Part shown: positions 1,868 to 2,209 of the stretch, in pieces
Layout of the letters: each line of letters starts with the position of its first letter
Position numbering within the stretch: position 1 is the stretch's first letter
Source: a virus
Lineage: Duplodnaviria > Heunggongvirae > Uroviricota > Caudoviricetes
IMG/VR virus record: IMGVR_UViG_2526164602_000016
Direction: 5' to 3' (one strand)
DNA: 7,924 nt
Program-made: the position numbers and the translations under genes
Notes under the pieces: model-generated
What the model was told of the DNA's origin: nothing
The model's database searches: none
Seen by the model: only the letters and a program-made list of their open reading frames with translations

Positions 1868-1870
1868 AAC

Positions 1871-1970
1871 ATAAAAAAATCCCGCAGTGATCGCGGAGCT
1901 GCGGGGACAGACAAATGAAGATCAATGTTAAGGAGTTGTTTTTGTTACTCGGGCAAAAAAACACTAACGC
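1871..1970 (-). ncRNA. Candidate small non-coding RNA of about 100 nt in the I-J intergenic insert (unnamed)
   Basis: On the minus strand a sigma70-like promoter (-35 TTTTCA at + coordinates 2001-2006, 18-bp spacer, perfect -10 TATAAT at 1977-1982) precedes a segment with no ATG. That segment ends in a GC-rich hairpin (cccgcag / 11-nt loop / ctgcggg, 1881-1905) followed by A then U7 (1873-1879). The predicted RNA contains a CA-rich stretch, GUAACAAAAACAACUCC. This is inferred from sequence motifs only. Confidence 0.3.
1872..1906 (-). terminator. Rho-independent terminator, minus-strand orientation
   Basis: A 7-bp GC-rich stem (5 G:C pairs) with an 11-nt loop, followed on the minus strand by A and a run of seven U. 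On the + strand the hairpin is not followed by a U tract, so it is unlikely to terminate I transcription. Confidence 0.45.
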
Positions 1971-1976
1971 AGCGAA

Positions 1977-2006
1977 ATTATAAGCGCCACAGTCAGTGTG
2001 TGAAAA
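1977..2006 (-). promoter_or_regulatory. Candidate sigma70 promoter for the minus-strand small RNA
   Basis: Minus-strand reading: TTTTCA, 18 bp, TATAAT. The -10 hexamer is a perfect consensus; the -35 matches 4 of 6 positions of TTGACA. Confidence 0.3.
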
Positions 2007-2076
2007 TGTGAAGATATTCAGAATTTTTATGCCATTACCGGTTTTAACCAACAGGATTATCGGTGGGCATGAAAGA

Positions 2077-2112
2077 AAACCCCGGTATCTGCTGATACCG
2101 GGGTTTCTCTTT
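2077..2112. terminator. Perfect 13-bp inverted repeat hairpin, putative bidirectional intrinsic terminator or protein-binding palindrome
   Basis: AAACCCCGGTATC (2077-2089), loop TGCT (2090-2093), GATACCGGGGTTT (2094-2106), with 13 of 13 complementary pairs. It is followed by CTCTTT on the + strand and preceded by GAAAGAAA, giving a U-rich tail in either orientation. Confidence 0.45.
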
Positions 2113-2209
2113 AGCATGGCAGAAATGTGTTTCATGCTTTTCGGGCGAAGGATATCCGACTTCTGTACGGAATGGCAAGTGGCGGTTAATTTATTCAGGG
2201 GAAGGCTGT

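Follow-up and report, generated by a model that had tools for sequence, protein, structure and literature searches.

A probable allele of the Hfq-dependent small RNA PasB in the I-J tail-gene spacer of a lambdoid prophage

A small RNA gene between tail genes I and J

We analyzed a 7,924-nucleotide stretch of DNA from a tailed virus (IMG/VR record IMGVR_UViG_2526164602_000016), referred to below as the window, which derives from a lambdoid prophage. Its tail genes I and J are separated by an intergenic spacer (1868-2209), and the I-proximal half of this spacer very probably encodes an allele of PasB, an Hfq-dependent prophage small RNA (sRNA) of ~83-98 nt that runs antisense to the late operon. 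The element is not new: PasB, for pathogenicity-associated sRNA B, was published from prophage PP6 of enteropathogenic Escherichia coli (EPEC) O127:H6 E2348/69 (Pearl Mizrahi et al. 2021, PMC8550237). An initial annotation, made from the letters of the window alone, had proposed a minus-strand sRNA gene with its own promoter and terminator set in the late operon. That proposal stands, and the gene is that of the published PasB, homologous to EcOnc22/23/24 of enterohemorrhagic E. coli (EHEC).

We identify the window element as a PasB allele because of its sequence identity, its I-J position, and an exact probe match. Window positions 1873-1955 (minus strand) align with the annotated 83-nt PasB (NC_011601 1466343-1466261, minus strand; Table S6, PMC8550237) at 82 of 83 positions in a pairwise comparison. 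In NC_011601 the PasB interval falls inside a 240-bp spacer, between a tail assembly gene that ends at 1466255 and gpJ, which starts at 1466496. The published PasB Northern probe (AATCCCGCAGTGATCGCGGAGCT) matches the window exactly at 1878-1900 on the plus strand. The two loci share the strand, a location immediately after the tail gene I stop codon, the antisense orientation relative to the late operon, and the terminator; they differ in spacer length (342 bp in the window versus 240 bp in E2348/69) and in the J-proximal segment. The sole mismatch lies at PasB position 27, where the window has A1929 and E2348/69 has C. This is the site given for the PasB-2 variant (Zhu, Shabalina and Storz 2026 preprint, bioRxiv 10.64898/2026.05.13.724894), so the window allele is most likely the one published as PasB-2.

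Published experiments in E2348/69 describe PasB as an expressed, Hfq-dependent RNA. Northern blots corroborated its size and Hfq-dependent stability, and deletion of hfq changed its level by a log2 factor of -6.8 in the activating and -2.4 in the non-activating condition; expression of PasB is higher in the latter condition (PMC8550237). PasB ranks 15 by number of interactions detected by ligating and sequencing interacting RNAs (RIL-seq), with both core and accessory RNAs as partners (PMC8550237); Table S5 gives a count of 37, taken here as interaction partners (PMC8550237). According to the 2026 preprint, PasB, whose function is not elucidated, sits within an operon of structural phage genes and is frequently found in isolates of extraintestinal origin, among them sequence type 131 (ST131) (bioRxiv 10.64898/2026.05.13.724894). 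Copies of the window spacer at 100% identity occur in many E. coli genomes and phages, and RefSeq places no annotation beneath them. The ST131 and extraintestinal distribution is in keeping with our searches, since these identical copies include JJ1886 as well as O157:H7, O26, and O111 strains.

The minus-strand unit has the general architecture of Hfq class I sRNAs: its own promoter, no open reading frame (ORF), and a GC stem followed by at least six U at the 3' end. A sigma-70 type promoter lies at 1977-2004 (minus strand), with a -35 box TTCACA (2004-1999), a 16-bp spacer, and a -10 box TATAAT (1982-1977), and it scores 11/12 in our scan. The near-consensus alternative originally proposed, TTTTCA-18-TATAAT at 2006-1977, is present as well and scores 10/12. 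The predicted primary transcript, deduced from promoter and fold, is 98 nt long (1873-1970, minus strand), from G1970, 7 nt past the -10 box, through the final U of the terminator. The same rules applied to the allele of E. coli O157:H7 Sakai give 91 nt, compared with ~85 nt on the published Northern blot. The minus strand contains no ATG between 1970 and 1873, in agreement with the ATG-free stretch first reported there. A weaker TAGTGT box at 1966-1961 (minus strand) could serve a start at 1955.

The transcript would end at a Rho-independent terminator (1873-1905, minus strand) composed of the stem CCCGCAG (1905-1899) / CUGCGGG (1887-1881) with an 11-nt loop, A1880, and seven U (1879-1873). 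Terminator scan and fold both recovered the GC-rich hairpin and seven U that had been placed at 1906-1872, and this was the single minus-strand terminator found. Taken as patterns, these signals are modest. Relative to shuffled controls there were 3 promoter-like sites versus 0.6 +/- 0.8 and 1 terminator versus 0.7 +/- 0.9, and the fold of the single sequence is ordinary (z = -1.27). Because pattern counts and fold are statistically weak, the case rests on comparative and published evidence. On that evidence, namely conservation across alleles and experiments published for copies that are near-identical or homologous, the feature is confirmed as real.

Upstream of the -35 box lies a conserved A/T-rich block that carries TTCACA-TT-TTCACA (2005-2033, minus strand; ATAAAAATTCTGAATATCTTCACATTTTCACA). 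At ~95% conservation over 26 unique alleles it is the most conserved segment of the whole spacer, above the RNA itself, and it is kept even in alleles in which both flanks differ. It is a candidate UP element or regulator site, which might be linked to the higher expression of PasB under non-activating conditions.

Allelic relatives and distribution

A second set of published sRNAs maps to the same place. EcOnc22/23/24 were reported from prophages Sp15, Sp14, and Sp11 of E. coli O157:H7 Sakai (Tree et al. 2014, PMC4104026), where they showed peaks in Hfq crosslinking and analysis of cDNA (CRAC) and a ~85-nt Northern band that was destabilized in delta-hfq (PMC4104026). The three Sakai I-J spacers are 240 bp each and identical to one another. 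Just ahead of the CCCGCAG terminator, the EcOnc Northern probe (GGGAGAGAACGATGAAGATTAAC..) has the sense-strand sequence of this spacer, so the RNA that it detects is the antisense one, the counterpart of the window candidate. Placing the CRAC peaks required a correction, because PMC4104026 used an older genome version. Coordinates in its Table S2 run ~128-137 nt below the current NC_002695.2 at 1.94 Mb, as calibrated on AgvB1 (now 1941920-1941978; published peak 1941783-1941835). With the offset applied, the EcOnc peaks fall on the sRNA, and naive mapping puts them in the wrong half of the spacer.

The Sakai and window loci have in common the I-J position, the orientation, the upstream block, an [A/T]ATAAT -10 box, a 5' GCRUUA, the AUCUUC motif, an identical terminator stem, and a U7 tail. 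They differ in the central body and the -35 region, and at the RNA level 75 of 98 nt are identical (~77%). EcOnc22/23/24 are thus a diverged, homologous allele of the PasB locus and not the same sRNA. We found no statement of this link in the PasB papers or in a 2021 review, as far as these were searchable; the review enters EcOnc22-24 with target unknown. HnrS (EcOnc10-12) was considered as an identity for the window RNA and rejected, being a different, 66-nt sRNA of other Sakai prophages.

To describe the wider family we collected alleles from 80 IMG/VR loci, 12 genome loci, and selected RefSeq matches, which gave 26 unique promoter-bearing alleles and 19 distinct RNAs. Over the 26 alleles, conservation is ~0.9-0.98 in promoter and terminator and 0.44-0.67 in the body, with segment borders about 1 nt off around the terminator. 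The -35 and -10 boxes are both ~0.9 conserved, the -10 reading [T/G/A]ATAAT in most alleles. Within the RNA the conserved parts are the 5' GCGUUA, an AUCUU core, the 7-bp terminator stem, and the U-tail. The core (1922-1918, within GAUCUUC at 1917-1923, minus strand) is invariant in all 19 RNA alleles and predicted to be single-stranded in the window allele, and GAUCUUC may be a seed or an Hfq contact. The terminator stem is likewise invariant in the 19 alleles, with loops that vary in sequence and length. A 5' hairpin between a U-run and an A-run appears in the fold of the window allele and in some other single folds but not in the consensus. RNA identity among the main alleles (the window/PasB type, the Sakai type, and the types of loci L003 and L004) ranges from 67 to 82%.

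We conclude that PasB, EcOnc22/23/24, and several unnamed alleles form one syntenic cassette family with a fixed promoter and terminator and a fast-diversifying body. In a sensitive search the promoter-plus-RNA unit came up at 5544 places, distributed over 1813 of 5426 complete E. coli genomes with up to 11 per genome, and none of these places carries an annotation. The Rfam search suggested at the outset matched no family: Rfam 15, applied to the whole window at gathering score and to the spacer at E values up to 10, returned sub-threshold chance matches only. The diversity of the family, with RNA identities as low as ~67-77%, exceeds the picture drawn from BLAST surveys at word size 28. What is added here is the merging of PasB from EPEC and EcOnc22/23/24 from EHEC into one family that is without an annotation model; a curated covariance or sequence model would let annotation pipelines label thousands of copies. 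More generally, a real sRNA gene was picked out from sequence alone, so reading prophage spacers for promoter-plus-terminator units is useful.

Three contigs that carry the sRNA unit are labelled Streptomyces flavalbus, Parendozoicomonas haliclonae, and a Clostridiales metagenome-assembled genome (L011, L013, and L020). Each holds this E. coli prophage module with a gene I that is 89-98% identical, and the labels probably reflect contamination or mis-binning in the assemblies.

Several points weigh against the assignment of the window element to a functional PasB gene. Support for expression of the window allele comes from homologous copies. In the supplementary files of PMC8550237 that were examined, we found no common target motif entry for PasB. 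The annotated 5' end of PasB corresponds to window position 1955, 15 nt downstream of the start at 1970 predicted from the TATAAT box; the mismatch could reflect RNA processing (e.g., trimming in the U-run), an imprecise coverage-based end, or another promoter. RNAalifold on the 19 alleles recovered the terminator stem only, with a covariation term of 0, as the stem never varies. Promoter-less copies behind sodC (described below) show that decay of the unit is possible.

One alternative is that the unit is what remains of a moron cassette in decay, its promoter and terminator left over without any selected function. Other cargo does occur at the same site (sodC in L007, a lipoprotein-like ORF in L015), promoter-deleted copies exist, and the prophage of the window has a frameshifted J and is probably defective. 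Yet promoter and terminator are kept across at least 26 alleles despite the divergence of the body, the RNA is abundant, Hfq-dependent, and interaction-rich in two pathotypes (PMC4104026, PMC8550237), and about a third of the complete E. coli genomes carry the family. We consider decay a poor explanation and give it little probability.

Possible modes of action

In the reading we prefer, the window encodes a canonical trans-acting Hfq sRNA of the PasB type. In the lysogen, the TATAAT promoter would drive expression of the RNA from a start near 1970, with possible trimming to 1955, and the RNA would end at the terminator beside the stop of I. The U-tail of the terminator would bind Hfq, and the single-stranded center, around ACUCC and GAUCUUC, would pair with mRNAs, such that different alleles may have different target sets. 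For homologous and near-identical copies it is reported that the RNA is made, stabilized by Hfq, crosslinked to Hfq, and recovered in RIL-seq chimeras with core and accessory transcripts (PMC8550237, PMC4104026). The window carries the same gene with near-consensus promoter and terminator both intact.

The RNA could also act in cis, triggering processing of the late mRNA or blocking J, whether in the prophage that encodes it or in a superinfecting relative with the same allele; such a role is compatible with action in trans. From position alone, the sRNA overlaps the late transcript completely in antisense, and its promoter converges on the late operon. An allele-specific body would allow allele-specific recognition, and up to 11 copies can reside in one genome. 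On the other side, no experimental hint of a cis role exists and RIL-seq shows many trans partners; moreover, the overlap is confined to non-coding spacer, with the ribosome-binding site of J >200 nt away in the window. We regard a cis-antisense regulator as unlikely. A broader proposal is that the variable body is an allele-specific specificity module, giving co-resident copies distinct targets, combined with a cis or anti-superinfection action that limits J and the tail tip. Such action is conceivable because the RNA is perfectly antisense to the late mRNA, and if true it would make the unit an RNA-based exclusion or late-gene silencing device, but the combination is rather improbable.

The initial annotation had also suggested that the CA-rich stretch of the RNA (GUAACAAAAACAACUCC; 1932-1948, minus strand) makes it a sponge or mimic for the sRNA GcvB. 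In this scheme the stretch would resemble GcvB targets and sequester the R1 seed, as AgvB does. The stretch is present, the PasB-type RNA of the window containing AACAAAAACAAC; a prophage anti-sRNA against GcvB exists in AgvB, and PasB is bound by Hfq (PMC8550237). However, the window sRNA lacks CACAACA, the consensus of GcvB targets, and predicted structures (both minimum free energy and centroid) have the CA-rich stretch paired with the 5' U-run. The stretch is also not a conserved motif of the family, reading AUAAGAAUAAUUCC or GAAAAAUAACUCC in other alleles. For AgvB, eight alleles, and 300 composition-matched shuffles we calculated pairing with GcvB R1 as the sum of duplex and opening energies, with the GcvB query confirmed at 100% identity against E. 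coli genomes; the calculation was limited to the sRNA body, because a full-length run is dominated by the terminator. The window body gave a hybrid energy of -15.4 and a total of -0.1 kcal/mol, compared with -23.7 and -13.5 kcal/mol for AgvB. Shuffled bodies did equally well or better in 34% of cases for hybrid and 31% for total energy, and total energies of the other alleles ranged from -1.7 to +4.4 kcal/mol. In the head of the activating-condition RIL-seq sheet (PMC8550237), GcvB-SroC is present and a GcvB-PasB pair was not found. Given pairing at shuffle level, the missing CACAACA, the allele-specific CA run, and the absence of a GcvB-PasB pair from that part of the sheet, the sponge idea is not supported, and we hold it to be highly improbable.

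AgvB itself was rejected as an identity on both locus and sequence. Like the window sRNA, AgvB and AsxR (Rfam RF02702 and RF02703) are prophage-encoded, short, and Hfq-associated, with a Rho-independent terminator. They differ in being 51-60 nt long and in their location, a moron site downstream of PR' where they are convergent with a second sRNA (PMC4104026); the window unit sits in the tail module. The 42-nt 3' region common to AgvB and AsxR is absent from the window sRNA, which shows no similarity to either Rfam family, and AgvB carries CACAACA.

The opposite strand raises one further alternative. A 22-codon ORF (MKINVKELFLLLGQKNTNAAKL; 1915-1983, plus strand) runs antisense to the sRNA and is a truncated allele of an ORF of 39-41 codons. 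Conceivably this micro-ORF is the functional unit (22 aa here, 39-41 aa elsewhere) and the minus-strand RNA is a partner, as in type I toxin-antitoxin systems, or irrelevant. Sakai, L004, L073, and L085 keep the longer form intact; it has a common C-terminus (..NVKxFRxFIPS), a plausible Shine-Dalgarno sequence, and runs of synonymous-looking changes at KELF. Against a coding role, the commonest other alleles have ACG in place of the start codon or have lost it by deletion, and most alleles are start-less, frameshifted, or interrupted by nonsense codons. The length of a poly-A run varies, which shifts the reading frame, and in the window a premature TAA ends the frame, the stop overlapping the -10 region. 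The ratio of nonsynonymous to synonymous polymorphism (pN/pS) is 0.3-1.2 on tiny counts and gives no clear coding signal. The peptide is not hydrophobic, a PHROG search gave no convincing match (best E = 0.26), and RefSeq annotates no coding sequence (CDS) at this site. The 22-codon ORF is probably not a gene, and a micro-ORF as the functional unit is very unlikely. Membership of the type I toxin-antitoxin class was rejected, the ORF being truncated or broken, not hydrophobic, and under weak or no purifying selection.

Acquisition at the I-J junction

The spacer appears to have received the PasB-type unit by a moron-type insertion, as first suggested. The ~60-bp I-J gap first given for lambda is accurate: lambda I ends at 15444 and J starts at 15505, leaving 60 bp. 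At distant I homologs in Enterobacter, Rahnella, Pantoea, and Pseudocitrobacter the sRNA unit is absent, and the junctions are 42-54 bp with a sense-strand hairpin only. Insertion fits because lambda and distant lambdoids have 42-60 bp at this place and because other cargo (sodC, a lipoprotein-like ORF) is found there. The unit resembles the tail morons of lambda type (lom and bor; sodC in Gifsy-like and O157 prophages) in being autonomous between late genes with its own promoter and terminator, but its cargo is a non-coding RNA that is transcribed against the late operon.

Minus-strand sodC lies upstream of the sRNA unit in L007, L020, L090, L095, and L101. Four sodC loci have lost the sRNA promoter through a deletion between two CAGAGA repeats, which leaves a promoter-less PasB-like body ~90 nt downstream of the stop codon and hairpin of sodC. 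A separate cargo occupies the I-J junction of Pseudocitrobacter faecalis (L015, 2115-2697), where a 582-bp insert contains a plus-strand frame with a lipoprotein-like signal (..KKYGLVLLGGLLISAC..).

The J-proximal segment of the window spacer holds a second, very stable hairpin just upstream of J (CCCCGGUAUC/GAUACCGGGG followed by UUUCUCUUU; 2080-2112, plus strand); a minus-strand fold that includes it has z = -6.3. Rather than a part of PasB, this is probably the sense-strand hairpin that I-J junctions typically carry. In lambda, in both E. coli spacer types, and in the loci of Enterobacter, Rahnella, and Pantoea, a plus-strand hairpin with a U-tract precedes J, though the stems differ in sequence; the 240-bp spacer type has its own J-proximal hairpin, with a C-G / U.G / U-A series. 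Individual examples include L106 (about 165-190), L014, L016, L018, L019, and L022. The element looks like a conserved terminator-like or stabilizer structure, and read-through would need Q antitermination. The E. coli spacers retained such a hairpin near J and acquired the antisense sRNA unit beside I.

A weak promoter-like sequence, TTGCCA-18-TATCCT, is present at 2149-2178 (minus strand) and is followed on that strand by the same strong hairpin and UUUUCUUUC (2068-2145). The 342-bp spacer type could give rise to a second short minus-strand transcript of ~70 nt.

Genomic setting

ORF and Pfam calls show that the window is the distal tail module of its prophage, in the order K-I-J-lom-stf. 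K (285-1289) is a JAB plus NlpC/P60 protein, and I (1187-1867) matches Pfam Lambda_tail_I. J is split into two ORFs with GpJ domains (2210-2653 and 2650-5685) and is followed by lom (5753-6352) and a side tail fiber gene (6411-7730). The end of I at 1867 and the start of J at 2210 bear out the reported spacer length of 342 bp, and composition bears out its lowered GC content (0.415-0.43, compared with 0.55-0.65 in the flanks). A Pfam search of the spacer ORFs, one of 77 aa on the plus strand and one of 44 aa on the minus strand, gave no match.

The reading frame of J is broken by a 1-nt deletion near 2633 (window 2625-2655) when compared with phage ASU11, in which J is intact (TTG-AGCG versus TTACAGCG). 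Because of this frameshift the window prophage is probably defective, with sequencing error as the alternative. A divided J also occurs elsewhere: in Sakai Sp14 this host-specificity gene is annotated as two overlapping CDSs, and the J of Sp15 looks like the split J of Sp14, with only the J-proximal CDS in the stretch compared.

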